Source of the DNA: Candidatus Aenigmatarchaeota archaeon
Lineage (GTDB): Archaea; Aenigmatarchaeota; Aenigmatarchaeia; QMZP01
Direction: 5' to 3'
DNA length: 49,982 nucleotides
Assembly: GCA_017609225.1 (NCBI GenBank)
Contig: JAFCEK010000001.1
Coordinates: forward strand, 1-49,982
Part shown: one piece after another, positions 12,324-44,024 of the stretch
Position numbering within the stretch: position 1 is the stretch's first letter
How the letters are laid out: each line of letters begins with the position of its first letter
Position numbers and translations under genes: made by a program
The notes under the pieces: model-generated
Database searches by the model: none
What the model was told of the DNA's origin: nothing
Seen by the model: only the letters and a program-made list of their open reading frames with translations

Positions 12324-12370
12324 TTCTTTGAATATATTATAACAAAAACAATTATTATTTAGTGGGATGT

Positions 12371-12847
12371 ATGAATGTGGGAGCTGTGTTTGGCATAATA
12401 TTTGCCGCAATATTCATAGGATTTATCCTGGCATTTGGTACAGGAGCAATAACAGACATATTCTGTGTTGGCAATGTTGCCCAGACAAACAATGCAGTAA
12501 AGCAGCTTGAGATAGCTGTTGAAAACCTTTATGTAAGGGGATCCGAGGGCTCAAGCGATGAATATACACTAAACATACCTGACAATGCAAGGGTATGCTT
12601 TGTGAACAGCACAGATGCAAGCCCGAATGTCCTGGGCGGCTGGATGCCAGACCCTGATACAGCGCATATAGTGAAAAGAAAGATAGAAACACAAAACCTC
12701 AATGTATGGGTTTACTACAACTGCGGAAGCCAGGAGCCGGGTTACAGGATTGAGTATCTCTCTGTGCCCAGCAGCTTTTGCGCCAGTCCAGGAACATCGC
12801 TCTATCTGGAGAACAAGGGACTTTCGGTTGAGATATCAAAAATGTAA
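12371..12847 (+). CDS. N-terminally anchored secreted protein (operon member)
   Basis: MNVGAVFGIIFAAIFIGFILAF hydrophobic N-terminus. Tightly spaced in the co-directional operon. Confidence 0.6.
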   Translation: MNVGAVFGIIFAAIFIGFILAFGTGAITDIFCVGNVAQTNNAVKQLEIAVENLYVRGSEGSSDEYTLNIPDNARVCFVNSTDASPNVLGGWMPDPDTAHIVKRKIETQNLNVWVYYNCGSQEPGYRIEYLSVPSSFCASPGTSLYLENKGLSVEISKM

Positions 12848-12887
12848 TTCATCAGCGCATGATTCAGAGTTCACATAACTGATATGC

Positions 12888-14015
12888 ATGATAACATTAT
12901 TCCAGCTGTTCAAGATGATTTTTGGCATAATTGTGGCAGCCTTTATTCTCTATGCGCTTCTGAATTATTCAGGCAGCTATTCAGTATTTCAGGAAAGCGG
13001 CATAAAGGCAAAGATATTGAACAATTTCAGGGAAACAGCGCAGGATGTTTATTATTCCGGAAATGCCATAACCTATACAGACTTTTCTGCATATGATTTT
13101 TCTGGCACAAGATATGAACCGCTCAGAAACCCCCCTCTAATAGTGTCCGAAGCAGGGGAAATGGATATATGGTTTCCTCTTTTCTTTGTTATGGGAGAGA
13201 ATGTTTACATACACAGGGGCAGCCTTGATTACAAATTCTGGAAATTTTATTTTGTTGAGGCACTACCTGATATGAATATAATCTTTAATCCTGTTGACAA
13301 CACGCCTGATGCATGGGAAATAATGCAGGGCATAGTGGAGCTTATGCCTGATACAGCAGGAACAGAAAGGAAAATATATTTCGGACTTTGTGACGGGGAT
13401 TTTTATGAAACAAATGCATGCGGAGGCAAGCCATGCAGCAGAAATGACTTCCTTAATGCGCAGTCCACATTCTCTGCAACCCGGTTTGATAAATGCACAG
13501 CATCCCTGCCGCAGAACTCAAGGCTTGTTGTGATATCATCAGGCTGCACGCAGGGCTATGCAAACAGCAGCATATGCATAATACCATCCGGTTCAGGTGT
13601 TGGAAATTTCTATATCTCGGGTTCTCCTGAAAAATTTATATACAGGGATTCCCTTGACCTGCTGTCTGCAGTCCTTGGCGGGACAGAGCAGGATGCATTT
13701 GGCAAAACGCAGGGGGAAAAATTTTATGAATACAAAAACAGGATATTTGGGGAAAGATTAAAGATAGCATCAGACATAACCGCCAAAAGGTCGCTGCTTG
13801 TTACAGGAAGGCTTAACCCGGATACGGAAAGCACTGACTATTACTGCAGGTCAGTTTATATTTCCCTTGAGGGCATAACAAACCAGATAAAATCACTTGT
13901 TTCCAACAGGAATTACTACACGAATACAGCAGACCAGACAAACCTTAAGAATCTCCTTGAGCAGGCAAAGCTCAATTACCAGGAGCTTGTAAACAGGGGA
14001 TGTGAGTATCAATGA
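12888..14015 (+). CDS. N-terminally anchored secreted protein, 375 aa
   Basis: MITLFQLFKMIFGIIVAAFILYALL N-terminal helix. Its stop overlaps the next start (ATGA at 14012). Confidence 0.65.
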   Translation: MITLFQLFKMIFGIIVAAFILYALLNYSGSYSVFQESGIKAKILNNFRETAQDVYYSGNAITYTDFSAYDFSGTRYEPLRNPPLIVSEAGEMDIWFPLFFVMGENVYIHRGSLDYKFWKFYFVEALPDMNIIFNPVDNTPDAWEIMQGIVELMPDTAGTERKIYFGLCDGDFYETNACGGKPCSRNDFLNAQSTFSATRFDKCTASLPQNSRLVVISSGCTQGYANSSICIIPSGSGVGNFYISGSPEKFIYRDSLDLLSAVLGGTEQDAFGKTQGEKFYEYKNRIFGERLKIASDITAKRSLLVTGRLNPDTESTDYYCRSVYISLEGITNQIKSLVSNRNYYTNTADQTNLKNLLEQAKLNYQELVNRGCEYQ

Positions 14016-14536
14016 AAACAAAAAACATAAAGGGGCAGTATTCTGTTCTTGAATATGTGTTTCTTTCCCTGTTCATTATAGCAATCATAATAGGGCTCAT
14101 GTTTTTCCTTACCATATGGAGCAGCATACAGTTTGGAGCTGAAAGCATGAAAACAGAATGGGACAGGGCTTTATGGCTCGGCCAGTATGTTCAGAACATT
14201 CCCCTGCTGGTTAAGGAAACAGGCATGTTTGATGATGGCAAGCTGACAGCCCTTGCAAGCATGGGCCCATCAAAGGCATGCGAATATCTTGAAAGCCTTG
14301 CAGGCCCTGACTTCTTTATGGAACTCAGGATTCTGGATGGAAATGAAACCCAGATAAACTGCACATGGCAGAACTATCCTGACTGCAATTACTGGGAGTT
14401 CTGCAAAAATACAGGCAAAAAAAAGAAAAAATTCTACACGCTTCCTGTAAATGTTTACAGAAGGATAGGGTTCAAGCTTCAGGAAACAACCACAGGCAGA
14501 ACAGACATTGGAATATTAAAGGCAGGTGTGTACTGA
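14012..14536 (+). CDS. Pilin-like protein with a class III signal peptide
   Basis: MKTKNIKG/QYSVLEYVFLSLFIIAIIIGLMFFL: K-G-Q site followed by a hydrophobic helix. Confidence 0.7.
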   Translation: MKTKNIKGQYSVLEYVFLSLFIIAIIIGLMFFLTIWSSIQFGAESMKTEWDRALWLGQYVQNIPLLVKETGMFDDGKLTALASMGPSKACEYLESLAGPDFFMELRILDGNETQINCTWQNYPDCNYWEFCKNTGKKKKKFYTLPVNVYRRIGFKLQETTTGRTDIGILKAGVY

Positions 14537-14559
14537 GGGTAGCAGCGGAAGGAGATTGC

Positions 14560-15093
14560 ATGAATGCAGAAAAAAACCATGAAAAGGCGCAGGCAAGCAT
14601 AATAATGATAGTCCTTGTTCTCATAATATTTGCAGGGCTTGCCCTGTTTCTCCTCTCCTTTGCAAAAACAATGAGCCAGGAGGATTACATGAGCACCTAT
14701 GTTAACAGTCTGCTGCTTTCAATAATGAGAACAGACACAGGATACCTGGATTCAGACTGCAGGCTTGTGTCAGATGCAATATCATGCAGCTTTTTCTCAA
14801 CAGGGCTTGTGTGCAGGGATTCGGAAATAACATGCGACAGCCTGGCATACAGAAAGGTGGAGGAATACATAAACAGAACCATAAAAAAAGGCTTCAGGTA
14901 TTTCTTTTCTGTAACACCGGAAGGATTTGTTGCAAGGTCAAGCTCGGGGGAGCCAATAAAATTTGAAATCGGGGATTCAAAGCTGAAAAGCGAGAAAACA
15001 GAAAAATGGAGCGCAAACCAGAGAATAATGAAGGCAACAGCAACAGGCCAGTATTCCCTGAAGGTTCAGCTTGTTATAGCTGTGAAAAAATAA
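14560..15093 (+). CDS. Pilin-like protein with a class III signal peptide
   Basis: MNAEKNHEKA/QASIIMIVLVLIIFAGLALFLL. Confidence 0.65.
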   Translation: MNAEKNHEKAQASIIMIVLVLIIFAGLALFLLSFAKTMSQEDYMSTYVNSLLLSIMRTDTGYLDSDCRLVSDAISCSFFSTGLVCRDSEITCDSLAYRKVEEYINRTIKKGFRYFFSVTPEGFVARSSSGEPIKFEIGDSKLKSEKTEKWSANQRIMKATATGQYSLKVQLVIAVKK

Positions 15094-15169
15094 CAGCATG
15101 CCCAGCTCTGCGAGCCCATGATTTCAAATAATTTCCAAATTTATATACATATAATGTTAATTAATTATT

Positions 15170-17020
15170 ATGAATATTAGGAAGGGGCAGGCAGAGCTCA
15201 TAATCCTGGTTGGCATAATAGTTGTTTTTGTGGCTGTTGTTTTCTATACATACCAGTCAAGCCTGTTCACGGCACCTGTAACACCTGAAACAGAAAACAT
15301 AAGGAACACTATAGAGAACTTCATAAGGGAGGGAGCAAGAGACACGCTCAGAACAATGTATGATTACGGCGGATACCTGGAGGCGCAGCCCGGCTCCGTG
15401 ATTTTTCTGGGAAAGGAAATTCCATACTGGCAGAAAAGCGGACAGGTATCATACCCTGATGTGAGGCAAAATCTTGTACAGGGCGTAACAAGCTATCTGA
15501 ATGAAAACAAGGATTCTCTTGAGGCAATGCTTGCAGGAAAGAATGTAACCCTTGGAACCGCCTATGTAAGCGCGGTTATCCTGGGAAGCCAGATAACCCT
15601 TACAGTAAACATGCCAACCCAGTACATGGAACAGAGCCTGCAGCAGCCGTATGTTGTTACAGTTCCATCCAAACTCGGCGAGATATATGAGTTTTCAAAG
15701 GGATTTGCAGCGCAGGAGGCCACAAGCAGATATTTTGAATATTTCACTGTGTCCAGCATGATGATAAGCCCGTTTGAAGGCGGTGTGCAGGCAGTGCCTG
15801 TTGTGGTTTTGCTTACGCAATGCGGGGAAATGGTTTTCAAAACATGGTTTGATATAAAACCCGGAATGGAGGATGTAATAAAAACAACGCTTGCTCATAC
15901 CTATATGCCAGGCAAGTCACCGCTTGGCGTAATGCACAAAACAAGCTTCCCGAAATATATGATACCTGAAATAGGAAACAAGGCATATGAGGATTTGAAT
16001 ATAAGCTTCCATCTGCCTGATGATTTTGAATTAACGCAGAGCAATTTCCAGTTTACCCCAAATCCGATAAGTGCATTTACAGAGCCTGTGCCAATGACAA
16101 GCCAGTGCTATTCAAACCCTGTTTATGTCAAGTATGCAGTAAACTACCCTGTTATTGTAAGGGTAAAGGACAGCCTTACAGGAGACAGCTTCCATTTCGC
16201 GATTGATGTTTCCATTTATGACAATGCGCCAAGGCCATGGACATCTGATACAACAGGATACACACCAGAGGTGCAGCAGGAGATATGCGAGAACCAGCTC
16301 TGCACAGCAAGCATAACAGTCACAGACAGCAGCGGTGCACCTGTTTCTGGAGCAGAAGCAAGCTTTATGGGATGCCCAATCGGAAGAACAGACAGTAATG
16401 GTATAGTGACAGCTTCCATACCATGCGGTATAGGGCCTCTTGTAATATACAAAAACAGATACCAGACATTCGAGCAGATGATGTCCTCAGACCATCTTGA
16501 AGGCACCACGATATCTATTGAAAAGATACCTGTGGTAAATCTGAATTTTTATGAAGTTAATATAGTCAACAACACGCTGACAGACGAGTACTGGATAAGG
16601 GTTGGAGATGTGAATATGATAGATGATATAACAGATGAAACAATTCATATAATATTTTATGACCTTTCAACAGGCGAAACCTATGAGAGAATATACGAGA
16701 ACAGGCAGGCAACAATAAGGCATATACCCCCGGGTTCATATGCTGTTACAGCCATGCTTTCAAGCCCTGATATGGCAATCATGTATGGCGCTGTGCTAAC
16801 CACACTTACAATAACAGAAGATATGGACGGAGGCACACTTTATGTTTATCTTCCTTATAATTTTGAATTCAAGGACATAACAGACAGCGTTGAAAAAACA
16901 GTTGCATCCAGAACATTAACAGCAGTGCTGGAGGAATGCGGCATAGGACCAATATCAAGCGAACAGTACGATATAAATAATTTACCATGTAAAAAAGCAT
17001 ATAGCGAGATTGTAATCTAA
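15170..17020 (+). CDS. Large (616 aa) pilin-like protein with a carboxypeptidase-regulatory-like beta-sandwich
   Basis: MNIRKG/QAELIILVGIIVVFVAVVF. Internal ITVTDSSGAPVSGAEASFMGCPIGRTDSNGIVTASIPCG resembles the CarboxypepD_reg fold. Confidence 0.7.
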   Translation: MNIRKGQAELIILVGIIVVFVAVVFYTYQSSLFTAPVTPETENIRNTIENFIREGARDTLRTMYDYGGYLEAQPGSVIFLGKEIPYWQKSGQVSYPDVRQNLVQGVTSYLNENKDSLEAMLAGKNVTLGTAYVSAVILGSQITLTVNMPTQYMEQSLQQPYVVTVPSKLGEIYEFSKGFAAQEATSRYFEYFTVSSMMISPFEGGVQAVPVVVLLTQCGEMVFKTWFDIKPGMEDVIKTTLAHTYMPGKSPLGVMHKTSFPKYMIPEIGNKAYEDLNISFHLPDDFELTQSNFQFTPNPISAFTEPVPMTSQCYSNPVYVKYAVNYPVIVRVKDSLTGDSFHFAIDVSIYDNAPRPWTSDTTGYTPEVQQEICENQLCTASITVTDSSGAPVSGAEASFMGCPIGRTDSNGIVTASIPCGIGPLVIYKNRYQTFEQMMSSDHLEGTTISIEKIPVVNLNFYEVNIVNNTLTDEYWIRVGDVNMIDDITDETIHIIFYDLSTGETYERIYENRQATIRHIPPGSYAVTAMLSSPDMAIMYGAVLTTLTITEDMDGGTLYVYLPYNFEFKDITDSVEKTVASRTLTAVLEECGIGPISSEQYDINNLPCKKAYSEIVI

Positions 17021-17031
17021 AAGATGAGAAT

Positions 17032-20000
17032 ATGGATATAAAGCACCTTGCACTGGAAATCTTTGCAGTAGCGGTATCCTATTTATTGTTAATGTTACCT
17101 GTAACATCAGCCACAAGCGTTAATATATTTTTCAATGGCATACAGCAGGACACAACAGATATATCTCCCGGAAATCTTGTAAGCAAAGAGATAAACGTGT
17201 ATCATGATGCTGATGATATAACATGGACAAACATAAAGGTTCTTGTAACCCTGAGCAGCGCAAGCCTTTCCCACAGCATAAAGAAAATATATTTATACAA
17301 ATGCAAAACACTGTCGCCATCCGCATGCATCCAGGGAACGCCCCAGGTATTTGACAGCTGGATTGATACAGAGCTTTCATGGAATGATATATCCCAGAGT
17401 GAGGGCGTGGGGGTTTATCCCCAAACAGCAAACCTGATGTTCCTTGTTAAGCTTGAAGACTTCAATGGCAAGGCAAGCTGGGTTGGCTTCTGGGATACCA
17501 TAAGAAGAATAGACTACAACATATTCAATCATTATAGTTATCCCCTCAATGAAATTGAATTTCATGCAAAATCCCTGGATATGATAGAACCCATAAAGAC
17601 ATACATAGAAAATTACCAGATGATTCCCTTCAACTGGGCAGAGAAGGTTGTATTCAGGATGGCAAACATACTCTATGGTGTTGGTGCAAACGAGCAGGAA
17701 ATTGAACAGACACCACCGTTTTTTGATGGGGCCCAGACAAGTACAAACCAGGTAACAAGCATAGGAAAGGACTATTACTTTGTGCTTTCAAACATCACAA
17801 GCGGCATAACCAATCCTGTAACCATGCGTTTGAATCCATCATTCACATGCGGCAATGGCCAATGCGAAACAGACTTGGGAGAAACCACATCAACATGCTG
17901 CTATGACTGCGGCTGCGCAGCAGATTTCTATTGCGATATGAGTGATGAACAGAATCCGGAAACAGGCGCCTGCAGGTCGCTAACAGAAATCACAGTAGAT
18001 GTAACAAGCACATCAATGGCTGACATAACTGACTGCAGCCAGAACCAGCAGTTAACTATAACAGCGCAGATAAATAATGCACCTTCCAACCTTCCCGCAA
18101 CGCTTACAGGATATATAAAACTGAATGAAACCCAGTATAATGTTCCATGCCAGTCAAGCATCCCAGGAATATATGAATGCACTGTAAATCTGCAGCCAGA
18201 GGTAAGATGCGGTGACGGAAGCTATGTTCTTGGTCCAAATGAGATTAATTTCACCATACCATTTAATGACGGACCTGATATGATAACTGAAACAATAGGA
18301 ACAGAATTTTCTGACATAACAGTAAACTACAACTGCGAATGTGCAGGCGGATATTATTGTGATTCCGGTCTGAGAATGTGCAAGCCGGAGGGGCAGATAG
18401 CGCTTGTTATAATAAATGTTACCTCATATATGGATAATTACAATCCTGCAGGGGATAACATAGGAATATATGCAACAATAAACAATCCCCCATCTGACAT
18501 GAGTATTACAGGAAGTTCATATGTTCTGGGAAACATAACCTTTGACGGAAGTTCTTCGCCTGGTTCCTCAGGAAGCGTGACATGTGATGAAAGCAACAAC
18601 ATATATTACTGCAGCATACCGCTGTTTATACAAAACTATGACCACTCAAGGCAGTATATAGTGAACGGAAACAGCCTCTCATTTACAATAAGCTTTAGTG
18701 ATGGCGGCAACTCCATAACAAAAACGCTTACAACAGGGTTTTCCGATATTATAGTGCCTTCGTACAGATGCGGTGATACTACATGCAATGCCGAAGAGAA
18801 TTCAGATAACTGCTGCCTGGACTGCGGATGTCCCAATCCCGATGATTACTGTGACAGGGTTTACGGCTGCGTGAACGAAAACAACATAACCATGGTTATC
18901 GATACAATAACACCTGAAAACCTGACTGACTGCAAGATACCCCATGTGCTTAACATAAAAGCAAGAATACTCAACGCGCCAAGCGACCTTGTTCTCAATT
19001 ATTATTATTATCTGCAGAATGATGAAATAAAGGGCTGGAACCTGTTATGCATGGAATCACCGCCAGGATCAAATATGGGAATTTTTGAATGCCAGCTTGC
19101 TGTTCCCCCCATTGATGATTGTTCCCTGCCTTATTACACGCTTGGCAATAATAAGCTGAGGTTTTCAGTTTCATTTCCAAACGGCCTCACGCAGGTTCTG
19201 ACAAAAACGCTTGAGGCTGAGTTTCAGGATATAAACATAGTTCCAACATACCATTGCGGTGACAATATATGCGAATATGACCTAAACGAGAGCGGCTCTG
19301 TGTGCTGTATTGACTGCATATGCGGCTCAGACCCGGATTTTGGATCTGAATATTACTGCGACTATGACCCCCAGCTGAATCCAAACGGCACATGCCTCCC
19401 AAAAAACAACATAACACTTGTTATAGACAAGCCGATGGCAGTTGTGCATTTCACAAGCTGCGAGAAGGCAAACACAGTAAACATAAAGGCGCATGTTGAA
19501 AACCAGCCTTCAGGCATGATTGTTGAAAATATTTTCGGCATTTTCAACGGGGAAACAGCTGAATATATCTCATGCACACCTGAAATGGGAATAATTACAA
19601 CACCAAACTATACAGGACCTGTTGAATGGAACTCATACAACTGCAGTCTTATTGTACCTGCAGAGCAGCAATGTTCACAGGGCCAGACATACACCTATAG
19701 CAATAACTCACTCTCATTCTTCATAAGCTATACAAACGGTTTGGGAAAAAGGGAAACACAGATACTTACACAGCCATATCCTGATGTGACAATAACCCAG
19801 AATATAAGAACACTTTATGACATAATGCAGGATGCAATCAGCAGGATGAAAGGAAAGCTTCAGGAAACCATAACACTTATGGAGGACCTCATCAAAATGT
19901 GGGAGGACTGTTTGGACATGCTGATTGCATTAACCATAGTAATGGTTATAGGAACAATTGTGGCAGGCGTTATTGGAGCCAAGACCGGAGGGACAGAAGG

Positions 20001-21426
20001 ATTCTCTGAAACAGTAAAGGCATCAAGTGCAGCCAGCACTGCAGTCATAACAACACTCATGGGCATATGCGAAATAATGGGTAAGGTAATACAGCTCAGA
20101 ATAAATATGAAGGAAACAGAGATTGACTTTATAAGAATGGAAACATGCATCGAGGTTTACCAGCACCAGATGGACACGGGAATGTGTGACAGGAATGCTG
20201 AGGGCTGCTTTAATGCAATAGCAGGCTGCATAGAGTTCGGGGAAATTAATAGTTTCATAAACAGCGCACAGAGCATAGGCAGGGATATAAACTCCCAGGT
20301 ACAGCGGATTGGAAACGCATGGAGAAATGTGGGAGAAACAGTTGAAGGCCTTTCATTCGGAGCCCAGGGAGAAGGTGCAATAAGCTTCACATGCTCTCCT
20401 GGAGGCAGCTACTGTTGCGGCTATGTACCAAGAACAACAACAGGCGCAGGGCAGAACCAGTACCAGCTTCAGACAGTCAGCCTGACTATGGCCAGTCTGA
20501 AAAACTGTGAGAGGCCAAGCATAAAGATATACTCAAAGAAGGACTGGCTGGCAAGCTCCGATGTATGCAAATCAGCAAGCGGCAGGGCAGATGATGAGGC
20601 AGAAACAGCAGCAAACCAGATATGCATTGAAGCTGGTACAGGGTGCAATGTTGACAGGAAGACCATAAGCAGGCATGACAGGGTTTTTGAATGCAAGTAT
20701 CTGCTAAAGGAAGGCGACAACGGATACGATGAAAATGTAAAGATGCAGTGCGAGGCAAAATCAGCATATGCGAATCAGGCAGGAAAAGAAAAAGCCAATA
20801 AAATATGTGAAAGCGAGGGCGGTTCAGGCTGCAAGGCAAAGGCAACCTTCTGGGGTGAGAATGAATTTAAATGTGTATCCTCAGAAACAGGATTCAAGGA
20901 AATAACATCTTCTTACAGGGGAACCACAAAGGAGCTGTTCGGACCGCAGATGTTTGGCCAGTCAGACCAGGATTCGGGAAATGATGAATATGCCTTTGTT
21001 CTGGCATGTGATGGCGTGGACACAGACACATCCCAAACAGTGAAGTACTGCCTGGGAACACCGCAGGCAGGATGCGGAACAGGCTCTCCATGCGCTGCTG
21101 TCCGCCCGGAATGGGAAGACATGGCTCCAAAATCACCTGCAGGCACAATAACACCAACAGCAACACCTGTTGATACCCCAACAACATTCAGCGTCCAAAC
21201 AGACGCATCAGTTGTTTCTTTTGTATGGCTTATAAACGGCAGAGAATTGCGTAGAGGCAGAACATATGATGATGATAATTATGGCTACAGGGTATTGGAT
21301 ATAACCAGCGATGGAAGATTGATAATTGAATTCACAAAACCAAACAGATACCCGCTTGAATCGCGCATAACAGATGACAGCGGAAACATTGGCTACATAA
21401 CAGAATGGATAGATGTTTCACCCTGA
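17032..21426 (+). CDS. Giant (1464 aa) modular Cys-rich surface protein with an internal hydrophobic segment
   Basis: Sec signal (LLLMLPVTSA). Four tandem modules of roughly 150 aa, three of which start CG-x-x-x-CE...CC-x-DC-x-C while the second starts with the variant CECAGGYYC. TM-like LIALTIVMVIGTIVAGVIGA at 19921-19980. Cys-rich C-terminal region and a PKD-like end. Confidence 0.85.
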   Translation: MDIKHLALEIFAVAVSYLLLMLPVTSATSVNIFFNGIQQDTTDISPGNLVSKEINVYHDADDITWTNIKVLVTLSSASLSHSIKKIYLYKCKTLSPSACIQGTPQVFDSWIDTELSWNDISQSEGVGVYPQTANLMFLVKLEDFNGKASWVGFWDTIRRIDYNIFNHYSYPLNEIEFHAKSLDMIEPIKTYIENYQMIPFNWAEKVVFRMANILYGVGANEQEIEQTPPFFDGAQTSTNQVTSIGKDYYFVLSNITSGITNPVTMRLNPSFTCGNGQCETDLGETTSTCCYDCGCAADFYCDMSDEQNPETGACRSLTEITVDVTSTSMADITDCSQNQQLTITAQINNAPSNLPATLTGYIKLNETQYNVPCQSSIPGIYECTVNLQPEVRCGDGSYVLGPNEINFTIPFNDGPDMITETIGTEFSDITVNYNCECAGGYYCDSGLRMCKPEGQIALVIINVTSYMDNYNPAGDNIGIYATINNPPSDMSITGSSYVLGNITFDGSSSPGSSGSVTCDESNNIYYCSIPLFIQNYDHSRQYIVNGNSLSFTISFSDGGNSITKTLTTGFSDIIVPSYRCGDTTCNAEENSDNCCLDCGCPNPDDYCDRVYGCVNENNITMVIDTITPENLTDCKIPHVLNIKARILNAPSDLVLNYYYYLQNDEIKGWNLLCMESPPGSNMGIFECQLAVPPIDDCSLPYYTLGNNKLRFSVSFPNGLTQVLTKTLEAEFQDINIVPTYHCGDNICEYDLNESGSVCCIDCICGSDPDFGSEYYCDYDPQLNPNGTCLPKNNITLVIDKPMAVVHFTSCEKANTVNIKAHVENQPSGMIVENIFGIFNGETAEYISCTPEMGIITTPNYTGPVEWNSYNCSLIVPAEQQCSQGQTYTYSNNSLSFFISYTNGLGKRETQILTQPYPDVTITQNIRTLYDIMQDAISRMKGKLQETITLMEDLIKMWEDCLDMLIALTIVMVIGTIVAGVIGAKTGGTEGFSETVKASSAASTAVITTLMGICEIMGKVIQLRINMKETEIDFIRMETCIEVYQHQMDTGMCDRNAEGCFNAIAGCIEFGEINSFINSAQSIGRDINSQVQRIGNAWRNVGETVEGLSFGAQGEGAISFTCSPGGSYCCGYVPRTTTGAGQNQYQLQTVSLTMASLKNCERPSIKIYSKKDWLASSDVCKSASGRADDEAETAANQICIEAGTGCNVDRKTISRHDRVFECKYLLKEGDNGYDENVKMQCEAKSAYANQAGKEKANKICESEGGSGCKAKATFWGENEFKCVSSETGFKEITSSYRGTTKELFGPQMFGQSDQDSGNDEYAFVLACDGVDTDTSQTVKYCLGTPQAGCGTGSPCAAVRPEWEDMAPKSPAGTITPTATPVDTPTTFSVQTDASVVSFVWLINGRELRRGRTYDDDNYGYRVLDITSDGRLIIEFTKPNRYPLESRITDDSGNIGYITEWIDVSP

Positions 21427-21455
21427 TTTTTATTTCCTTCTGCCTAATTATTTAT

Positions 21456-23006
21456 ATGAAATTAGCACCTGCACTTTTCCTTGCTTTTGCAATAGTTATG
21501 CTGTTTTCCCCTGTGTCAGCCCTGAGGATTAATGATAATCTTTATTTCACAATAAGCAATGACAGCGTAAAATGTGTTGATATTTTTCTGCCTGATGATG
21601 CAGGGGTTTTTGACCTGGGGCTTTTCGAGTATGTTATAACAAGCACAAGCCCATGGGGCGACCTGACAGAGCAGATAGTGAGAACAGATGAGAACAATAC
21701 AGTACTGATACCAATATGCTTTTTTGGCTCAGAATGGCCAGAGTGCCAGTGCTCAAACCATACAATCACCATATCAGTGCCTTCGCTTGGGATAAGCAAA
21801 ACCTTCAGAGGCGGGGTTTGCGTATCCAGCATAGAGGATGTTGATATTGTGGATGATGCCGGGGGGCAGACACCGGACCAGGTTCTTAACACCAACATGG
21901 ACATGTTCAGTATAGGATTTCAGATGCCAGTTCAGCATGCAGCTCCGGGGGAAACCGTTACATACAGGCTGTTTGCCGAGTCGCAGGCGGATATAGTGCT
22001 TGACATAATATTTGAAAATTCAGAATTATCAGTAATACCTGCCCAGGCGCAGGCAGAGCTGGACAGCTCAAACCCCTTTGAACTCTTTGACTTTAATGTT
22101 ACAGCCCCAAGCCAGGCAGGAAGCTATACGTTTACAATAACTGCTGCAGCCAGGGACTGCACAGGAAATTTCTGCACAAAAAAAGCCAGAGGAACGCTTA
22201 ATGTTGGAGGCACACCCTCCGCAGGATTTTCTGTAAATCTGTTCCCAAAAAACCTTAATGTCAGGGAGCTTACATCTGTTAGATATGAATTTTCAATCCA
22301 GAACTTTGGTGAACCGGAAAACTTTACCATAACAGGAAACATACCACAGAATCTTGCCACAGATTTCCGGGAAACAACCCTGTTTGTAGGGTCCAAAAAA
22401 ATAAAAAGCATAAAATTTTCTGTTACGCCTGCTGCATCCTCAAGCCTTTATGAGATAACAATATCCGCCACTGGCTCCGGAAACAACACAAAGCATGCCA
22501 CTGCATACCTTTCCACAAATGAAATGCTGACAGACCCGCAGAGGTATGCAAACAGCATAACAGGAAGCACAGACAACAGAAGCATTATAAACAATGTGAA
22601 CAACGCAATGAACAGCTGGCAGAATTCATACAGCTCAAACACATATGGAGCGGATACAGGGCAGTACAGCAGCCTGCAGGAAACCCTTGGCATTGCACAA
22701 TCCTCACTTAAGTCATCCCAGGAGCAGCCAGCGGGAATATGCACCCCAGGCAAAAAGCAGTGTTATGGTATGCTCCTTCAGGAATGCAGGCAGGACGGCT
22801 CAGGCTGGGAAACCCTTGAAACATGCGATTATGGATGCGATAATACACTGCATGCATGCATACAGGACAGTGGAGGGCAGCCATCTGCAGGTTTTGACTA
22901 CATATGGATTATTGTTATAGCTGTCATTGCTGCAGCAGCCATTGGCTTTATTTTTTACAGAAAAAAATCAGGCGGCCTGGAGGCCGAGCTTGAACAGGAG
23001 TTTTGA
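21456..23006 (+). CDS. Surface protein (about 516 aa) with Sec signal, C-terminal Cys module, TM anchor and acidic tail
   Basis: MKLAPALFLAFAIVMLFSPVSA. The C-terminal CTPGKKQCYGMLLQECRQDGSGWETLETCDYGC module is shared with the 2150-aa protein. TM YIWIIVIAVIAAAAIGFIF. The ATG at 21456 avoids overlap with the upstream stop at 21426. Confidence 0.8.
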   Translation: MKLAPALFLAFAIVMLFSPVSALRINDNLYFTISNDSVKCVDIFLPDDAGVFDLGLFEYVITSTSPWGDLTEQIVRTDENNTVLIPICFFGSEWPECQCSNHTITISVPSLGISKTFRGGVCVSSIEDVDIVDDAGGQTPDQVLNTNMDMFSIGFQMPVQHAAPGETVTYRLFAESQADIVLDIIFENSELSVIPAQAQAELDSSNPFELFDFNVTAPSQAGSYTFTITAAARDCTGNFCTKKARGTLNVGGTPSAGFSVNLFPKNLNVRELTSVRYEFSIQNFGEPENFTITGNIPQNLATDFRETTLFVGSKKIKSIKFSVTPAASSSLYEITISATGSGNNTKHATAYLSTNEMLTDPQRYANSITGSTDNRSIINNVNNAMNSWQNSYSSNTYGADTGQYSSLQETLGIAQSSLKSSQEQPAGICTPGKKQCYGMLLQECRQDGSGWETLETCDYGCDNTLHACIQDSGGQPSAGFDYIWIIVIAVIAAAAIGFIFYRKKSGGLEAELEQEF

Positions 23007-23146: not shown

Positions 23147-24922
23147 TCAGAATTCTTCTTCGCTTCCAGCATCATCCTCAAACTCTTCTTCCCCGGCAGA
23201 TTCCTTTCCACTGCCAAGACCATGTTTTTTGAGAAATTTGAATGCTACAAAAACAACCACCAGCACCACAACAACTATTATAACAAGAGTGAAATCAAAA
23301 CCCCCGCCTGCACTAACAGGCTGCACTGCAGCCCCAAGAGCAATAACATTCTGAAGAAGACTGAATTTTGCGCTGGCAGAGTCATAGTATTCTTTTGCCC
23401 GGGTATAATCACTGTCTTTATATGAATCTGCAGAGCTTATATCGCTGTCTATGTCATCCAATATATAATAAAACAGGTTTTCCTGATCCAAACTAAGATT
23501 CATTCTGAAGCTGGAAAATTCCTGCTGCAGTGAATCTACATCGCCTGAAATATCCTGGAAAAATTCAGCGCTTACAACTATATTTGCTGTTCCAGCACCT
23601 GTATCTATCTCAATTGTGCCGCTGTATCTTCCGGGGCTGGGAGTTGAAAGCGAAACATTCACTATTCCTGAGCTGCCTGGTGCTATGGAATTTGGCAAAA
23701 CCACAGAAGCTATTGAGCCTATTGTTCCAGTGGCTGAATAACTAATGTTATCCATTGTGCTGTTTCCAAGGTTTGAGAGCGTGAATGTTCTGTAAATTGT
23801 TTCTCCAACTGTGCTGGTTTCAATCCATGTTGAAGGTGAAATGCTCAGGTCACCAGACACGCAGGCAGGGCAGTCCCCACCAGCGCTCCCATCACACTCA
23901 TTCATAACGCTTATGGTTATGTTTACAGGTATCCTGCCTATCACAGTTCCGTTTGAAACAATATCTGCCTGGGTTCCTATCTCCATGCTGTTTTGTATGT
24001 TGTTCAGGTTTACAGTAAAGTAAATAGTCCCTTTTCCTTCTATTGTGCTGTTGCCCAGGGTTATGCTGAGATATGGTGAAAGCGCAGATATTATGCTGGT
24101 TGACAGGTCTGCTATGCTCTCATTGCCAAGATTTCTTATCCTGAATCCTCCCTGCGAAAAGCTCTGTCCTTTTGTAACCATAACATCCAGGGAAACAGCA
24201 TCTATCTCCAGGTCAGCAGGCACATATGCCCCACCGGTTTCTTCACCTTTAATTACAAATCTTACCAGGTCACCGCCAAAGCTTGTTCCTCCGCTGTTTT
24301 GAGCGGCGAATGCCATGTAGTACTCGCCGGGCCCCAGGCTTATATTGCCTATGTAACCTCTTATGGGAGTATAATAAACCAGGCTGCCTGACTTTTCAGG
24401 CAGAAGGTCTATGCTGCTGTTGTATGTTTTGTAGCTTACACCTGTAACCCCTGTATCAGACCATACTGTTATATCAACCATGCCATTATTATTTGTTGTT
24501 ATGTTTATGGTAAGCTCTATATCACCTGCATTTACAGTGTCCTGAAATCCGCTTTCCTGACCATAGGCATCGCTAATGTTTACAGAGAATGTATAAGGTA
24601 TAAATGTTTCAGAGCCCTGATATTTTGATGCATAGAAGGGCGTGGGACCGCATGTGCTCTTTTCATCTGTATTTGAAAAATAGCAAACCCACCTGTTTCC
24701 GGACCTTGGAAACGAGCCAAAACCATCTGCTATGCCAAAAACCTGCCATCTTACCCTTATGGACTTGGAATATTCCCCCGGATCTGCTACTGCAATAAAG
24801 CTTGCGTTTGCGGAGAATTTTTCAGGGATAAATGTTACTATGGGGTCGGGAAGCGCCTGCACATTAACCAAAACCAGTGCAAAAACCAGAAACCCGGCTG
24901 CCAGCCCCGCACATATTTTCAT
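23147..24922 (-). CDS. Surface protein (591 aa) with Sec signal, beta-rich repeats, C-terminal TM and acidic tail
   Basis: MKICAGLAAGFLVFALVLVNVQA. C-terminal FDFTLVIIVVVVLVVVFVAFKF followed by KKHG...EEEFEDDAGSEEEF. Confidence 0.8.
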   Translation of the reverse strand: MKICAGLAAGFLVFALVLVNVQALPDPIVTFIPEKFSANASFIAVADPGEYSKSIRVRWQVFGIADGFGSFPRSGNRWVCYFSNTDEKSTCGPTPFYASKYQGSETFIPYTFSVNISDAYGQESGFQDTVNAGDIELTINITTNNNGMVDITVWSDTGVTGVSYKTYNSSIDLLPEKSGSLVYYTPIRGYIGNISLGPGEYYMAFAAQNSGGTSFGGDLVRFVIKGEETGGAYVPADLEIDAVSLDVMVTKGQSFSQGGFRIRNLGNESIADLSTSIISALSPYLSITLGNSTIEGKGTIYFTVNLNNIQNSMEIGTQADIVSNGTVIGRIPVNITISVMNECDGSAGGDCPACVSGDLSISPSTWIETSTVGETIYRTFTLSNLGNSTMDNISYSATGTIGSIASVVLPNSIAPGSSGIVNVSLSTPSPGRYSGTIEIDTGAGTANIVVSAEFFQDISGDVDSLQQEFSSFRMNLSLDQENLFYYILDDIDSDISSADSYKDSDYTRAKEYYDSASAKFSLLQNVIALGAAVQPVSAGGGFDFTLVIIVVVVLVVVFVAFKFLKKHGLGSGKESAGEEEFEDDAGSEEEF

Positions 24923-35982: not shown

Positions 35983-36753
35983 ATGATAATGCAGGACCAG
36001 TATGTGCTTGACATGGCAGCAGAAGGCAAAAGGGTTGACGGAAGAAAGCATGATGAATTCAGAAAAATAGAAATTGAAAAGAACCCCCTGGAAAAGCCTG
36101 AGGGCTCTGCAAGGGTAAGGATTGGCAAAACAGATGTTATAGTGGGTGTGAAAATGGAGGTTGGGGAGCCGTTCCCTGACAAGCCGGATGAAGGAACCCT
36201 GATGGTTGGAGCAGAGTTTTCTCCCATGGCATCGCCTGACTTTGAGGCAGGTCCTCCAAGGGAAGATGCTGTGGAGCTTGCAAGGGTTGTGGACAGGGGA
36301 ATAAGGGAATCAGGAGCAATAGATGTTAAAAAGCTGTGCATCAAAAAGAAAGAGAAGGTATGGATTGTTATGATTGACATTCAGATAATGAATCATGACG
36401 GGAACCTTTTTGATGCATCAACCCTGGGAGCTATAACAGCCCTGCTTAATACAAAAATACCGGAGTATGATGAAAAAAAAGATGAAATAAACTACGAGAA
36501 AAAAACAAAGGTGCTGCCTGTCACATGCAAGCCGGTTTCTGTTACATTTGCAAAGATTGGAAACCAGATTTTTGTGGACCCCGGCCTTGACGAGGAAAAC
36601 GTTGAAGGAGGAAGAATAACAGTCACAACAAAGGACAATGGAAATATATGCGCTATACAAAAGGGAAGTCCTGTGCCCTTTACACTGGATGAAATAGAAA
36701 AAATATTTGATATGGCAATTGAAAAAGGCAAGGAGCTGAGAAAGCTTGTTTGA
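35983..36753 (+). CDS. rrp42: Exosome RNase PH-like subunit Rrp42
   Basis: GKRVDGRKHDEFRKIEIEKNPLEKPEGSARVRIGKTDVIVGVK. The ATG at 35983 is preferred over the GTG at 35962. Confidence 0.88.
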   Translation: MIMQDQYVLDMAAEGKRVDGRKHDEFRKIEIEKNPLEKPEGSARVRIGKTDVIVGVKMEVGEPFPDKPDEGTLMVGAEFSPMASPDFEAGPPREDAVELARVVDRGIRESGAIDVKKLCIKKKEKVWIVMIDIQIMNHDGNLFDASTLGAITALLNTKIPEYDEKKDEINYEKKTKVLPVTCKPVSVTFAKIGNQIFVDPGLDEENVEGGRITVTTKDNGNICAIQKGSPVPFTLDEIEKIFDMAIEKGKELRKLV

Positions 36754-36769
36754 GAGCAGGAGATGAGAT

Positions 36770-36985
36770 ATGCCAAGAACAAAGAAAGTGGGTGCAGCAG
36801 GGAAGTTCGGCTCAAGATACGGAAAAACAATAAGAGACAGATATGTTGATATTCAAAAACTCAAAAAGAAAAAGAACACATGCCCAAAATGCCTGAGCCA
36901 GAGGATAAAAAGGGTTTCAGCAGGCATATGGGAATGCAGAAAATGCGGGCTGAAGTTTGCAGGCAAGGCATATAAACCCAAATGA
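36770..36985 (+). CDS. rpl37ae: Ribosomal protein eL43 (L37Ae)
   Basis: [18 protein letters not shown] plus the CPKC...CRKC zinc ribbon. Confidence 0.93.
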
Positions 36986-37045
36986 GATATATTAATATAA
37001 AATATTTCTCCACTAATAGTCATGTGGAGCAAGGCTGTAGATTAT

Positions 37046-37183
37046 ATGTACAGGTGTCTTAACTGCGGAAAGCAGGTAGAGCTGGACTTAAAGACAGCCA
37101 AAAAAGTAATCTGCCCCTACTGCGGCTACAGGATTCTGAAAAAGGAAAGGCCAAAGGTAATAAAAAAGGTAAGGGCAATATAA
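37046..37183 (+). CDS. rpoP: DNA-directed RNA polymerase subunit P (Rpo12), 45 aa
   Basis: Not in the ORF track. Manual translation gives MYRCLNCGKQVELDLKTAKKVICPYCGYRILKKERPKVIKKVRAI*. It has a CxxC...CxxC zinc ribbon and the typical KERP...VKAx tail. It sits in the conserved position after rpl37ae. Confidence 0.85.
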   Translation: MYRCLNCGKQVELDLKTAKKVICPYCGYRILKKERPKVIKKVRAI

Positions 37184-37184
37184 T

Positions 37185-37294
37185 GTTGCCTCCGTATATC
37201 CGCCTACTAAAGTCGGCGGTTTTCTTGGCGAGGCAACAGCTGTTGAACCAGAACCATACATCCACTGTTTGAAAACAATGGTTTTCTGGTTCAG
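37185..37294 (-). repeat. MITE-like two-hairpin repeat, copy 4 (inverted; between the rpoP stop and pfdB)
   Basis: The reverse complement matches copies 1-3. It begins 2 nt after the rpoP TAA and runs up to the truncated N-terminus of pfdB. Confidence 0.85.
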
Positions 37295-37321
37295 GCATAC
37301 CAGCAGCAGATACAGGGCCTG

Positions 37322-37591
37322 ATGGCGCAGAAGGAAGCGCTAAATATGCAGCTCATGGAAATAAGAAAAGCCCTTGAGGAGCTGGAAAAAACAAAAGAAA
37401 AAGAGGTTTACAGGCTTTCGGGTCCCATTCTGATAAAATCAACAAAGGCGGAAGTAAAAAGCATGCTTAAGGACAAAGAAGAGCTTATAAACATGAAAAT
37501 AAAAACCCTGGAAAAGGGAGAAAAAAAGATGAAAGGAAAGATTGAAGAGCTCAGAGACAAACTCACAAAAAATGATTCAGATGCAGGCTAG
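37322..37591 (+). CDS. pfdB: Prefoldin beta subunit (N-terminally short)
   Basis: MAQKEALNMQLMEIRKALEELEK...VYRLSGPILIKSTKAEV...coiled coil. The in-frame upstream codons AYQQQIQGL continue the expected prefoldin N-terminal helix but run into the repeat with no start codon. Confidence 0.8.
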   Translation: MAQKEALNMQLMEIRKALEELEKTKEKEVYRLSGPILIKSTKAEVKSMLKDKEELINMKIKTLEKGEKKMKGKIEELRDKLTKNDSDAG

Positions 37592-41152: not shown

Positions 41153-41578
41153 TCAGCCCTCACTTTTTATTTTTTCCCTTATTTTTGGCATTATGCTTGA
41201 TAAATCAATCTCATACTTCCCCGGCCCGACTCTTATAACTATGGGCTTCTGCTTGAACAGTGTTGTGACATCAATCCTGTACTTTCCGGGCTTTATCACC
41301 CTGATTGCCTCTACATCAAGAACCACAACATCCTCAGGCTTCAGTTCCCTGCCCTCTTCAGAAACAATATCCCTGATATCCTCTTCAATCTCCTTTACCT
41401 CCTCTTTGCTGAGCTTCTCTATATCGGTTTCTGCCTGCTTCAGATCCTCCTGCCTGACAAAGAAAAAGAACTTTGAACCGCACCTGTCGCATCCGTTCAT
41501 AAGATACTCAGCATTGTCAGGATGTATCTTCCCGCAGCCCGTGCATTTGTTCGGCATATCATTCACCAATTCCAGCAA
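41153..41578 (-). CDS. Zn-ribbon protein (DUF2072-like)
   Basis: CTGCGK...CDRCGSKFFFF zinc ribbon, an acidic linker, and a C-terminal beta-rich domain. Confidence 0.6.
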   Translation of the reverse strand: MLELVNDMPNKCTGCGKIHPDNAEYLMNGCDRCGSKFFFFVRQEDLKQAETDIEKLSKEEVKEIEEDIRDIVSEEGRELKPEDVVVLDVEAIRVIKPGKYRIDVTTLFKQKPIVIRVGPGKYEIDLSSIMPKIREKIKSEG

Positions 41579-41663
41579 AATATAATAAAAACCTCAATTT
41601 CGGCCTGTATATAATTGAAGGCAGTATTAATAAATTTGTTATCTGCAAATTTTTTAAAACCAA

Positions 41664-42020
41664 CTACATATACAGAAGCAAATCCTCGGGGTCTCTTTTT
41701 ATTTTGCGGACAATCTTTGCAGGCCCTATTATCGTGAATCCCCTTTTCTTGCCTATTATGGTTTCTATTATACTGTTCCTTATTTTTTCAAATGGGGTTG
41801 TTTTGTCACCTGAACTTAAATCAAGAGAGCCCAGCTCAATCCCCTTGAATCTTGAGGAAACCTCCTCCATGGTCTCCTTTATAATAAGCGCCTCTTCCTC
41901 GGGGTTGAGCTTTGCATCAATAAGAATTATTGTGTCTTTCTGTAGGTCATTTAGAAAGCTTTTGATACCATCCTTCTTGAACTTCTCATATGGTATCATT
42001 TTTATCATAATATTTTTCAT
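41664..42020 (-). CDS. DUF2073-like archaeal conserved protein
   Basis: MKNIMIKMIPYEKFKKDG...ILIDAKLNPEEEALIIKETME. It lies between the Zn-ribbon protein and the GTPase, as in the conserved archaeal triad. Confidence 0.5.
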   Translation of the reverse strand: MKNIMIKMIPYEKFKKDGIKSFLNDLQKDTIILIDAKLNPEEEALIIKETMEEVSSRFKGIELGSLDLSSGDKTTPFEKIRNSIIETIIGKKRGFTIIGPAKIVRKIKRDPEDLLLYM

Positions 42021-42060
42021 ATCGCTTACCTTTGGATTTTCCGGCAGATTAACGGCCCAG

Positions 42061-42723
42061 TCACAATGCATTGAAGAGCTCCTTGTACAGCTCATCAATA
42101 TTAAATCCTGTTTTTGCAGATATGCCTATTGTTTTGTAGTTCGGGAATGCAGACCTTACCCTGCTTGCCTTTGACCTCTTTAAATCAACCTTGTTGGCCA
42201 CTATAAGAAGGGGGATTTTCCTTGCATCCAGGTTGCCCAGGATTGTTATGTTCACCTGGGTAAGAGGGTCCTTTGTTGAGTCAAGAACAACCAGCACAAG
42301 GTCCATGTCATCAAGCCATTTTATGGCCTCTATCACACCTTTTGTGGCTTCCTTTGCCCTCTGCTTTGCTGTCCTTTTCTTAAGGCCGTATTTGATGAAA
42401 TCCTCAAAATCTATTTTTGTTGCTATGCCAGGAGTATCAACAAGATTGAATGTAAGGCTTTTTCCATTATCCTTTATGGTTACGCTCTCCTTCATTTTCA
42501 CTTCCCTGGTTTCATGCGGTATAACAGAAACCTTTCCCAGCTCCTCGCCAAGCCAGTCCATGCATATTTTATTGGCAAGCGTGGTTTTCCCGGAATTGAC
42601 AGGCCCATAAAGACCTATCTTTATGTTCTTCCTTTTCCTGAAAATCCTGGAAACCAGAGAACGCAGTTTTCTTCCAATTCTCCTTAAAACCATTAAATCA
42701 CCAAATTCTGTCTGCGGAACCAT
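42061..42723 (-). CDS. Small GTP-binding protein
   Basis: G1 [10 protein letters not shown]3 DTPG, G4 NKVD. Confidence 0.85.
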
Positions 42724-42809
42724 CTGGACATATCAGCGGAAATATGGTTTATATTTGGGAAATTGATATATATTTGTTGACTTCAGAAGCCGGAAATAAA
42801 TGAAAAAAA

Positions 42810-43011
42810 TGCGCCGACCGGGATTTCCGCGATTGTTTCCCTGCATGGTTTCGAACCCGGATCGAGGGCTTTCTTCGTAAGGCGGTTTTTGCCTTAAGGC
42901 TTTTGCAGAAGGCTGAAGCCTCTAAAAAGCCTTGCTTGGAAGGCCCGCATCCTTTAATGGCAGCCCTTCCCCTCCTCATAAAGAAAGGCTCTACCATTAG
43001 ACTATCGGCGC
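42810..43011 (-). tRNA. tRNA-Gly(UCC) with three predicted introns (D-arm, canonical 37/38, T-loop)
   Basis: Predicted exons are 43011-42991, 42951-42937, 42870-42850 and 42823-42810. They assemble into a 71-nt cloverleaf with a perfect 7-bp acceptor (GCGCCGA/TCGGCGC), a 5-bp T-stem (CCGGG/CCCGG), T-loop TTCGAAT and anticodon loop CTTCCAA. The 37/38 intron forms a textbook bulge-helix-bulge. A poly-T tract follows the 3' end. Confidence 0.7.
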
Positions 43012-43067
43012 GTGACAAACCAATGACCGCTGGTTAATTCAGTATTAGCTGCCATAATTTTATATTA

Positions 43068-43589
43068 TTACTCAATATCATCAAAGTTCAGGTCTTCAAA
43101 TTCCTCATCCTCAGGCTCCTCTTCCTCCTTGCCCTGAACATTTGCAGGCTTCTGCACAGCCTTTGCTGATGCGCCTGAAATTGCCTCAACTATCTTGTCC
43201 AGGGTTTTTTCATCCATTTTTTTGACCTGAAGCATGCCTTCAAGGCTCACTGGGCCCTCTGTCAAAAATCTTGGTATCACATGGAAATGTGCATGCGCAA
43301 CAACCTGGCCTGCTGCCTTGCCATTGCTCTGCGCAATGGAAATTCCCTGCGCATTCATTCCGTTCATTACCATGCCTGCAATCCTTCTCACAGATTCAAA
43401 AAGCCTGCCTGCCTCCTTTTCCGGCATATCCAGGAGGGTTTCATAATGTTTCTTTGGTATTACCAGCGTATGTCCGGGATTCCTTGGGTTTATATCAAGG
43501 AATGCAAAGGACACATCATCCTCATAAACCTTTTTTGCCGGTATATCTCCCTTTACTATTCTGCAGAACAGGCATTCGCCTTCTTCCAT
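43068..43589 (-). CDS. HIT-family nucleotide hydrolase with an acidic C-terminal tail
   Basis: Histidine triad HAHFHVIP. N-terminal CLFCRIVKGDIPAKKVYEDD. Confidence 0.88.
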   Translation of the reverse strand: MEEGECLFCRIVKGDIPAKKVYEDDVSFAFLDINPRNPGHTLVIPKKHYETLLDMPEKEAGRLFESVRRIAGMVMNGMNAQGISIAQSNGKAAGQVVAHAHFHVIPRFLTEGPVSLEGMLQVKKMDEKTLDKIVEAISGASAKAVQKPANVQGKEEEEPEDEEFEDLNFDDIE

Positions 43590-43866
43590 TACACAACCTC
43601 CTTGCAGCCGATACATACATAACTGCTGCCGGCTGCCTTTATGGGGCCATCCGGATGTTCAGCAAGCCGGTGCTGCCGGCATGCATTTGAACCGGAGTCG
43701 GCGGCTGTTCCGCAGAAGCTGCACAATGCATGCAGCCATCTGGCCCAAAGCCGCAATGCTAACCAAACTACACCATGGCTTCATGCAGGCATTTGCCTGT
43801 CCCATGCACATGGCCCCTGTGAATTAATAACATTTTCTTTGTTGTGTTTAAAAACCTTTATGGTCA

Positions 43867-43962
43867 AGCCCCGGGCCGGAATATCAGACAACACCCGTTG
43901 CCTTTTGAACCGGCGACCTGTGCTTTACGAGAGCACCGCTCTGCCAGCTGAGCTACCGAGGC
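43867..43962 (-). tRNA. tRNA-Thr(CGU) with a 23-nt intron in the T-loop
   Basis: Acceptor GCCTCGG/CCGGGGC (one G-U), D-arm GCTC-AGCTGGCA-GAGC, anticodon arm GTGCT-CTCGTAA-AGCAC. The T-stem GCCGG/CCGGC encloses 30 nt instead of 7. Removing 43881-43903 gives the T-loop TTCAAAT. Confidence 0.8.
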
Positions 43963-44024
43963 ATGCACAATCCCCATAAGCATGCTGGGCAACACTTTTA
44001 ATATTGAAATTCATGTATTAAATT

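Follow-up and report, generated by a model that had tools for sequence, protein, structure and literature searches.

A putative tRNA-Gly(UCC) gene with three bulge-helix-bulge introns in an Aenigmatarchaeota-like archaeon

The tRNA-Gly(UCC) gene and its spliced product

In a 49,982-nucleotide (nt) stretch of archaeal DNA (contig JAFCEK010000001.1, hereafter the window), we analysed a 202-nt segment of the minus strand which had been read, from its letters alone, as a tRNA-Gly(UCC) gene that needs three introns removed. The parts of the gene are given below in the 5' to 3' direction of the tRNA, with window positions, Sprinzl numbering for the tRNA, helix lengths in base pairs (bp) and an arrow at the predicted cut within each bulge.

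42810..43011, minus strand: whole tRNA-Gly(UCC) gene, 202 nt, four exons and three introns; discriminator A, CCA not encoded
42993..43011, minus strand: exon 1, 19 nt, GCGCCGATAGTCTAATGGT; acceptor 5' strand, U8 and A9, D-stem 5' strand, D-loop through U20
42954..42992, minus strand: intron 1, 39 nt, D-loop, 20/21; central helix AATG/CATT, bulges GT↓A and AA↓A, D stem as outer helix (4 bp)
42937..42953, minus strand: exon 2, 17 nt, AGGATGCGGGCCTTCCA; A21, D-stem 3' strand, G26, anticodon-stem 5' strand, loop through A37 including the anticodon UCC
42871..42936, minus strand: intron 2, 66 nt, canonical 37/38; central helix CTTC/GAAG, bulges CA↓A and AA↓A, anticodon stem as outer helix (4 bp)
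42850..42870, minus strand: exon 3, 21 nt, AGCCCTCGATCCGGGTTCGAA; A38, anticodon-stem 3' strand, 4-nt variable loop, T-stem 5' strand, T-loop through 59
42824..42849, minus strand: intron 3, 26 nt, T-loop, 59/60; central helix TTCG/CGGA, bulges AA↓A and AA↓T, T stem as outer helix (5 bp)
42810..42823, minus strand: exon 4, 14 nt, TCCCGGTCGGCGCA; U60, T-stem 3' strand, acceptor 3' strand, discriminator A73
42803..42809, minus strand: run of seven T (T7), directly 3' of the discriminator base

Excision of the three intervening segments leaves a 71-nt product, GCGCCGATAGTCTAATGGTAGGATGCGGGCCTTCCAAGCCCTCGATCCGGGTTCGAATCCCGGTCGGCGCA, which ARAGORN calls as tRNA-Gly(tcc). All of the arms described in the sequence-only reading are present as it gave them: a 7-bp acceptor stem, GCGCCGA/TCGGCGC, followed by the discriminator A; a D stem, GTCT/GGAT, with two G-U pairs; an anticodon stem, CGGGC/GCCCT, with a C27.U43 mismatch; the anticodon loop CTTCCAA; the T arm CCGGG-TTCGAAT-CCCGG; and a 4-nt variable loop. 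The product also retains U8, A14, G18 G19, U33, the UUCRAAU T-loop and the discriminator, and its G+C content is 63%, against 43% for the window. Judged by what is generally known of archaeal termination, the adjoining T7 run would act as an oligo-T transcription terminator of the archaeal kind.

Since it carries 131 nt of insertions, the unspliced gene gives no match to tRNA covariance models. Neither ARAGORN nor Rfam at gathering thresholds returned a match for the 202 nt, and Rfam again missed the gene on a 1.4-kb slice at E <= 10 with permissive filters, as had been anticipated when it was said that standard scanners often miss such genes.

The same strand also carries an open reading frame (ORF) of 89 amino acids (aa) at 42749-43018, so that the region might instead code for a protein, with the tRNA-like features being incidental. 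The open frame, its strand and its TTG start would allow for such a protein, but the TTG start may equally be held against it, the translation is basic and of low complexity, and no Pfam family matches it even at E <= 0.01. Furthermore, the frame is not kept in relatives, in which the intervening segments differ by non-multiples of three or are absent, and the region is fully accounted for by the tRNA evidence. We give this explanation practically no credence and, like the sequence-only reading, treat the ORF as spurious.

Splice motifs of the three introns

The splice motif was defined as a 4-bp central helix between exon sequence and the 3' end of the intron, with a 3-nt bulge on each strand that is cut after its second nucleotide and an outer helix made of exon sequence, and every product-equivalent register of each intron was scored for it. 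Three registers of each non-canonical intron yield an identical spliced product, and exactly one register per intron combines a 4/4 central helix with an exonic outer helix.

The 66-nt intron at 37/38 has exactly the coordinates that had been proposed for it. Its canonical motif, with CTTC/GAAG and the two bulges followed by the helix AAGGC/GCCTT, was found both in the strict register and in the unconstrained minimum-energy fold, and its inner helix comprises a G-C pair, a C.A mismatch and then the 5-bp AAGGC/GCCUU. The T-loop intron, proposed at about 26 nt, is likewise exact in its coordinates and falls at 59/60; its central helix, UUCG/CGGA, includes one G-U pair, and its inner helix is weak, with 1 bp and otherwise scattered pairs. 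For the D-arm intron, the proposed length of 39 nt and the spliced product both stand, whereas the borders do not: it had been placed at 42952-42990 (about 21/22-22/23), and because only the register 42992..42954, 2 nt away, forms a bulge-helix-bulge, we place it at 20/21. Its outer helix is the D stem GUCU/GGAU, and inside the motif lies the hairpin AGCCUUUC/GAAGGGCU, in which one G-C pair and a bulged G precede an 8-bp helix.

Introns 1 and 3, with their weak inner helices, are of the relaxed motif type, the kind that the sequence-only reading had suggested looking for in the D-arm and the T-loop; both nevertheless have full 4-bp central helices. As a control, the exons were kept fixed and each intron was shuffled 20,000 times, counting as a motif any 4/4 central helix whose outer helix was 4 bp or longer. 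Such motifs arose in 1.7% of the shuffles for intron 1, 1.1% for intron 2 and 4.2% for intron 3, or about 8e-6 jointly.

Other classes of interrupted gene were considered and set aside. Group I and group II self-splicing introns are ruled out by the lengths of 26-66 nt and by zero Rfam intron matches, and a split or permuted tRNA gene by the four exons, which are colinear within 202 nt on one strand. No C/D-box guide RNA was found in the 66-nt intron, either by eye or with Rfam.

Orthologues in related genomes

Between the tRNA genes of the window lies a HIT-family gene (43068-43616), whose best matches, at 58-66% identity, come from metagenome-assembled genomes (MAGs) labelled Candidatus Aenigmatarchaeota; genome and metagenome scans gave no relative closer than 66% protein identity, and a look-up of the exact HIT protein matched no record. 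Judged by these sequences, the host is an Aenigmatarchaeota-like archaeon of the DPANN group (Diapherotrites, Parvarchaeota, Aenigmarchaeota, Nanoarchaeota and Nanohaloarchaeota), not a member of Thermoproteales. The gene order is kept in relatives as tRNA-Thr(CGU), tRNA-Pro(UGG), HIT and tRNA-Gly(UCC).

One metagenomic contig (L084) carries, directly after the HIT gene, an uninterrupted tRNA-Gly(UCC) at 2052-2122, which is called by ARAGORN and scores 67 bits in Rfam against a threshold of 29. It is identical to the spliced product of the window at 63 of 71 positions (89%) and continuous across all three junctions, with the same acceptor stem and the same D arm; exon 1 differs from it by a single base, and the 14-mer of exon 4 ends this gene as well as the orthologues in L007 and L008. 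At position 28:42 the two genes show a compensatory change, G-C in L084 against C-G in the window. This syntenic, intron-free orthologue, colinear with the spliced product, is the strongest support for the sequence-only reading.

In five other relatives, the syntenic tRNA-Gly gene is interrupted at the following positions.

L001: introns at 37/38 and 59/60
L004: introns in the D-loop, at 37/38 and at 59/60
L002: intron at 29/30 only
L007 and L008: introns at 29/30 and 59/60

These orthologues have one to three introns per gene, of 15-150 nt and with sequences that mostly cannot be aligned, and the exons are conserved among the relatives while the introns vary or are absent. An intron at 59/60 with a UUCR (TTCR) central-helix strand occurs in four of the five intron-bearing orthologues and is paired to the intron every time. 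After splicing, the six sequences (the window and the five orthologues) align with 90% mean column identity and no junction gaps. When the cloverleaf was laid on this alignment, 98.4% of stem cells were paired and four pairs were changed on both sides; in a control in which the partners were slid by 1-3 columns, pairing was 25-47%, with almost zero compensatory changes.

These comparisons bear on whether the gene could be a relic, a former tRNA-Gly disabled by three insertions whose processing has been lost. Such a pseudogene would fit the invisibility of the unspliced gene to ARAGORN and Rfam as well as the C27.U43 mismatch and the D stem with its two G-U pairs; the genome may also hold a second, intron-free tRNA-Gly(UCC) outside the window. 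However, C27.U43 is also present in the 67-bit intron-free orthologue, and is therefore a trait of the lineage rather than decay. In addition, no stem or conserved tRNA position is disrupted, each of the three insertions falls exactly into a bulge-helix-bulge register, as random insertions would not, and the predicted T7 terminator adjoins the 3' end of the gene. The relatives retain intron-bearing copies at the syntenic site, and no other tRNA-Gly(UCC) was seen in their fetched flanks. We consider a pseudogene unlikely.

Two further features were seen in the orthologous loci. In L007, some 800 nt downstream of the intact tRNA-Gly(UCC), the last ~35 nt of the T-loop intron, the 3' exon and the T-rich tail occur in an exact second copy at 6345-6394 (compare 5502-5551). 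It resembles either the duplicated tRNA 3' end that an integrating element leaves behind or a gene that was duplicated in part. In L004, the 150-nt T-loop intron (3656-3805) contains three GGTTGATAAGGG(C/A)GGG units, each followed by a complementary CCCTTAT; this intron is internally repetitive and hairpin-rich.

Precursor folding and proposed splicing

The minimum-energy fold of the precursor has -80.1 kcal/mol (z = -3.5 against shuffles) and holds the acceptor stem together with the exact canonical motif of intron 2. Several results weigh against a functional gene spliced at the three sites given above. The minimum-energy fold draws the 5' bulge of intron 1 into a continuous 9-bp helix and lacks the T-arm motif; a cloverleaf constrained to contain all three motifs reaches -70.4 kcal/mol, about 10 kcal/mol above that fold, so the splicing-competent structure is predicted to be reachable, yet a different fold is favoured. 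In introns 1 and 3, the inner helix starts with just one pair. When one to three excisions were enumerated under loose motif rules, ARAGORN accepted at least 461 products of the locus as tRNAs. Finally, a Pfam scan of ~46 ORFs of the window turned up neither an EndA (splicing endonuclease) gene nor one for RtcB.

Since so many alternative products are also accepted, the ARAGORN call on the hand-spliced sequence is weak evidence by itself, and it is the strict motifs and the orthologues that carry weight. The same observations lend something to the view that the borders lie elsewhere, for example in the D-arm register of the sequence-only reading, or that an alternative splice gives another D-loop, T-loop or product: hundreds of products pass loose criteria, the D-loop and T-loop motifs are missing from the minimum-energy fold, and each non-canonical intron has three product-equivalent registers. 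However, for each intron a full central helix and an exonic outer helix occur together in a single register, around every junction each base of the product agrees with the intron-free L084 gene, and the alignment to the five other spliced orthologues has no junction gaps. We regard different borders as very unlikely indeed. Taking both sides together, we hold it highly probable, from comparison of sequences, that in this Aenigmatarchaeota-like DPANN archaeon the locus is a functional gene for tRNA-Gly(UCC), made up of four colinear exons and three bulge-helix-bulge introns at 20/21, 37/38 and 59/60.

By analogy with known archaeal tRNA splicing, a precursor of about 200 nt would be transcribed up to the T7 run. 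The exonic D, anticodon and T stems would each extend into a 4-bp exon-intron helix flanked by two 3-nt bulges, EndA would cut after the second nucleotide of each bulge (six cuts in all), and an RtcB-type ligase would join the exons. RNase P and a 3' nuclease would trim the ends, and CCA would be added, because none is encoded. The introns at 20/21 and 59/60 would require a broad-specificity endonuclease, that is, an EndA which accepts non-canonical positions. Such broad specificity is tied to loop insertions in (alpha-beta)2, epsilon2 and some DPANN alpha4 enzymes, and EndAs of the homotetrameric or homodimeric type that lack extra loops reportedly fail to process introns of this kind (PMC5829648). 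In this regard, the gene predicts that the splicing endonuclease of Aenigmatarchaeota-like archaea has broad substrate specificity, and it would place these archaea among the lineages with the maximum known load of three introns per tRNA. The known mechanism is left unchanged by the finding.

Neighbouring interrupted tRNA genes

We scanned the whole window for further interrupted tRNAs by combining a T-arm with acceptor complementarity. Three G+C-rich candidates were obtained, all in one Thr/Pro/Gly cluster, and the other 118 matches were discarded as A+T-rich chance pairings, many of them inside ORFs. The two neighbours of tRNA-Gly are as follows.

43642..43817, minus strand: tRNA-Pro(UGG), interrupted three times
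43867..43962, minus strand: tRNA-Thr(CGU), with one 23-nt T-loop intron, 43903..43881, at 59/60

In tRNA-Pro, the introns at 37/38 (43743..43707) and 59/60 (43685..43656) both have 4/4 central helices, and a third insertion lies near the 5' end with ambiguous borders. A 35-nt intron, flanked by GCCATG direct repeats, was tried and rejected, as it forms no bulge-helix-bulge in any of the three product-equivalent registers scored (after position 7, 8 or 9). An alternative which gives the same mature tRNA-Pro puts the 5' end at 43803 and a 21-nt intron, 43800..43780, at 3/4. This intron would have CAUG/CAUG as its central helix, GG↓A and AA↓G as its bulges and CAGGC/GCCUG as its inner helix, and both helices occur in the minimum-energy fold of tRNA-Pro; under this alternative, the GGGGCCAUG copy further upstream would be read as a leader in which the first 9 nt of tRNA-Pro are repeated. 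The tRNA-Thr intron has a central helix of 3/4 and an inner helix of 6 bp.

In both L004 and L006, an intron-free orthologue of tRNA-Pro precedes the HIT gene, and intron-free orthologues of tRNA-Thr were found in L009 and L086. The spliced Pro and Thr products are called by ARAGORN and match intron-free orthologues (L004, L006, L009, L084, L086). The three adjacent tRNA genes thus hold seven introns, and all three have one at 59/60.

The hexamer TGCATG occurs seven times within ~290 nt (43680-43967), mostly inside the tRNA-Pro introns, two of which start with it. As a window-wide motif it was dismissed, with 65 matches against 69 expected; only the tRNA-Pro cluster is unusual.

ARAGORN is blind to tRNA-Gly and to both of its neighbours, and Rfam is blind to tRNA-Gly and tRNA-Pro and gives a partial match for tRNA-Thr of 26.4 bits, which is below threshold. 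As a result, a genome of this lineage would seem to be without tRNA-Gly(UCC), tRNA-Pro(UGG) and tRNA-Thr(CGU), and such apparent gaps distort inferences of completeness and codon usage for DPANN MAGs. The concern that disrupted tRNAs are missed was raised by a 2018 survey of EndA (PMC5829648).

Possible movement of introns

The Gly introns were compared all against all and evaluated against shuffles. The D-loop intron of the window (42954-42992) and the 37/38 intron of L001 (3646-3679) are identical over their first 13 nt, AGAGCCTTTCTTT, and fold into similar hairpins; their match has z = 9, its score is reached by none of 300 shuffles, and only the clearly homologous pair of L007 and L008 introns scores higher. 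The hairpin family at issue is AGAGCCUUUCUUU, and a related CCTTTTCTT...AAGAAAAGG hairpin is found in the T-loop intron of L008. At the level of sequence, this suggests one intron family that was copied between sites within a tRNA, with its 3' end then re-adapted to the new exon. The shared 13 nt resemble the intron transposition proposed in Thermoproteales, here as one short, low-complexity match.

With seven introns in three adjacent genes of the window, and zero to three at shifting sites in the syntenic orthologues, the locus could be a sample, from Aenigmatarchaeota, of a burst of tRNA introns like the one in Thermoproteales, with introns still moving between positions. We put this forward tentatively and hold it to be rather doubtful. 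If true, DPANN would offer a second, independent system in which the spread of bulge-helix-bulge introns could be followed. The Thr-Pro-HIT-Gly block, which ranges across relatives from intron-free to seven introns, makes a compact natural series in which to study how introns are gained, lost and possibly transposed.

Relation to known disrupted tRNA genes

Canonical archaeal tRNA genes carry a single intron at 37/38 in a strict hBHBh' motif, as Marck and Grosjean reportedly described in 2003 (work cited in PMC4033280). Intron 2 is a textbook case of this kind: its 3' end pairs with positions 32-35, both splice sites lie in the 3-nt bulges and the outer helix is formed by the anticodon stem. 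Unlike those genes, the one described here has two extra introns, one in the D-loop and one in the T-loop.

Archaea are already known to have tRNA genes with as many as three introns, mainly in Thermoproteales (PMC4033280; PMC8450103), and passages of the same two papers that refer to Sugahara et al. 2007/2008 name Pyrobaculum, Thermofilum and Caldivirga for multiple-intron genes. Like those, the present gene has up to three short bulge-helix-bulge introns in a colinear gene, at 37/38 and at sites in the D and T regions, with exonic stems as outer helices; the intron content likewise differs between close relatives, and there are hints of similar intron sequences at different positions. In contrast, the host here is a DPANN archaeon with 43% G+C and not a crenarchaeon, and the EndA of Thermoproteales is a heterotetrameric (alpha-beta)2 enzyme with a crenarchaeal loop (PMC5829648), whereas no EndA gene was found among the window ORFs scanned. 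Rfam gave no relatives of the Gly intron sequences of the window.

Within DPANN, disrupted tRNAs have been described in Nanoarchaeum equitans and in the Micrarchaeota ARMAN-1/2, which have an epsilon2 EndA, and alpha4 EndAs with an L3 loop are known from Pace-, Woese- and Nanohaloarchaeota (PMC5829648, PMC3488258). The 2018 survey took incomplete tRNA sets in new DPANN genomes to point to unidentified disrupted tRNA genes, and Aenigmarchaeota lay outside it (PMC5829648). The present locus shares with these DPANN a small genome and non-canonical, multiple tRNA introns missed by standard predictors; unlike in some of them, no split or permuted gene is involved. It adds to an already known kind of gene, the three-intron archaeal tRNA and the disrupted DPANN tRNA. 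We found no description of tRNA introns in Aenigmarchaeota in the full-text literature, the coverage of which is incomplete and makes this weak evidence of absence.

Genomic context

By its gene content, the window reads as an ordinary segment of an archaeal chromosome. It encodes PCNA, class II (Asp/Lys/Asn-type) and seryl-tRNA synthetases, exosome subunits and SBDS, as well as both proteasome subunits, the termination factor FttA, OapB/OapC and Nre. The OapC and OapB genes (41153-42098, minus strand) lie directly downstream of the tRNA cluster; in haloarchaea, oap genes flank replication origins. Pfam gave no match for two giant ORFs (2150 aa and 1464 aa) or for the run of eight other ORFs that surrounds them (5194-11646, minus strand; 11949-23006, plus strand; 23147-24922, minus strand); large orphan proteins are typical of DPANN genomes. 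A 790-nt stretch without long ORFs (36753-37542) was looked at and dropped, since it holds just small zinc-ribbon and basic ribosomal-protein-like genes. At 43070-43115 on the minus strand, weak matches to four archaeal C/D-box small RNA families were obtained (best 16 bits against a threshold of 37); they fall in the acidic C-terminal coding end of the HIT gene and probably arise by chance from its GAUGA-rich Asp/Glu codons.

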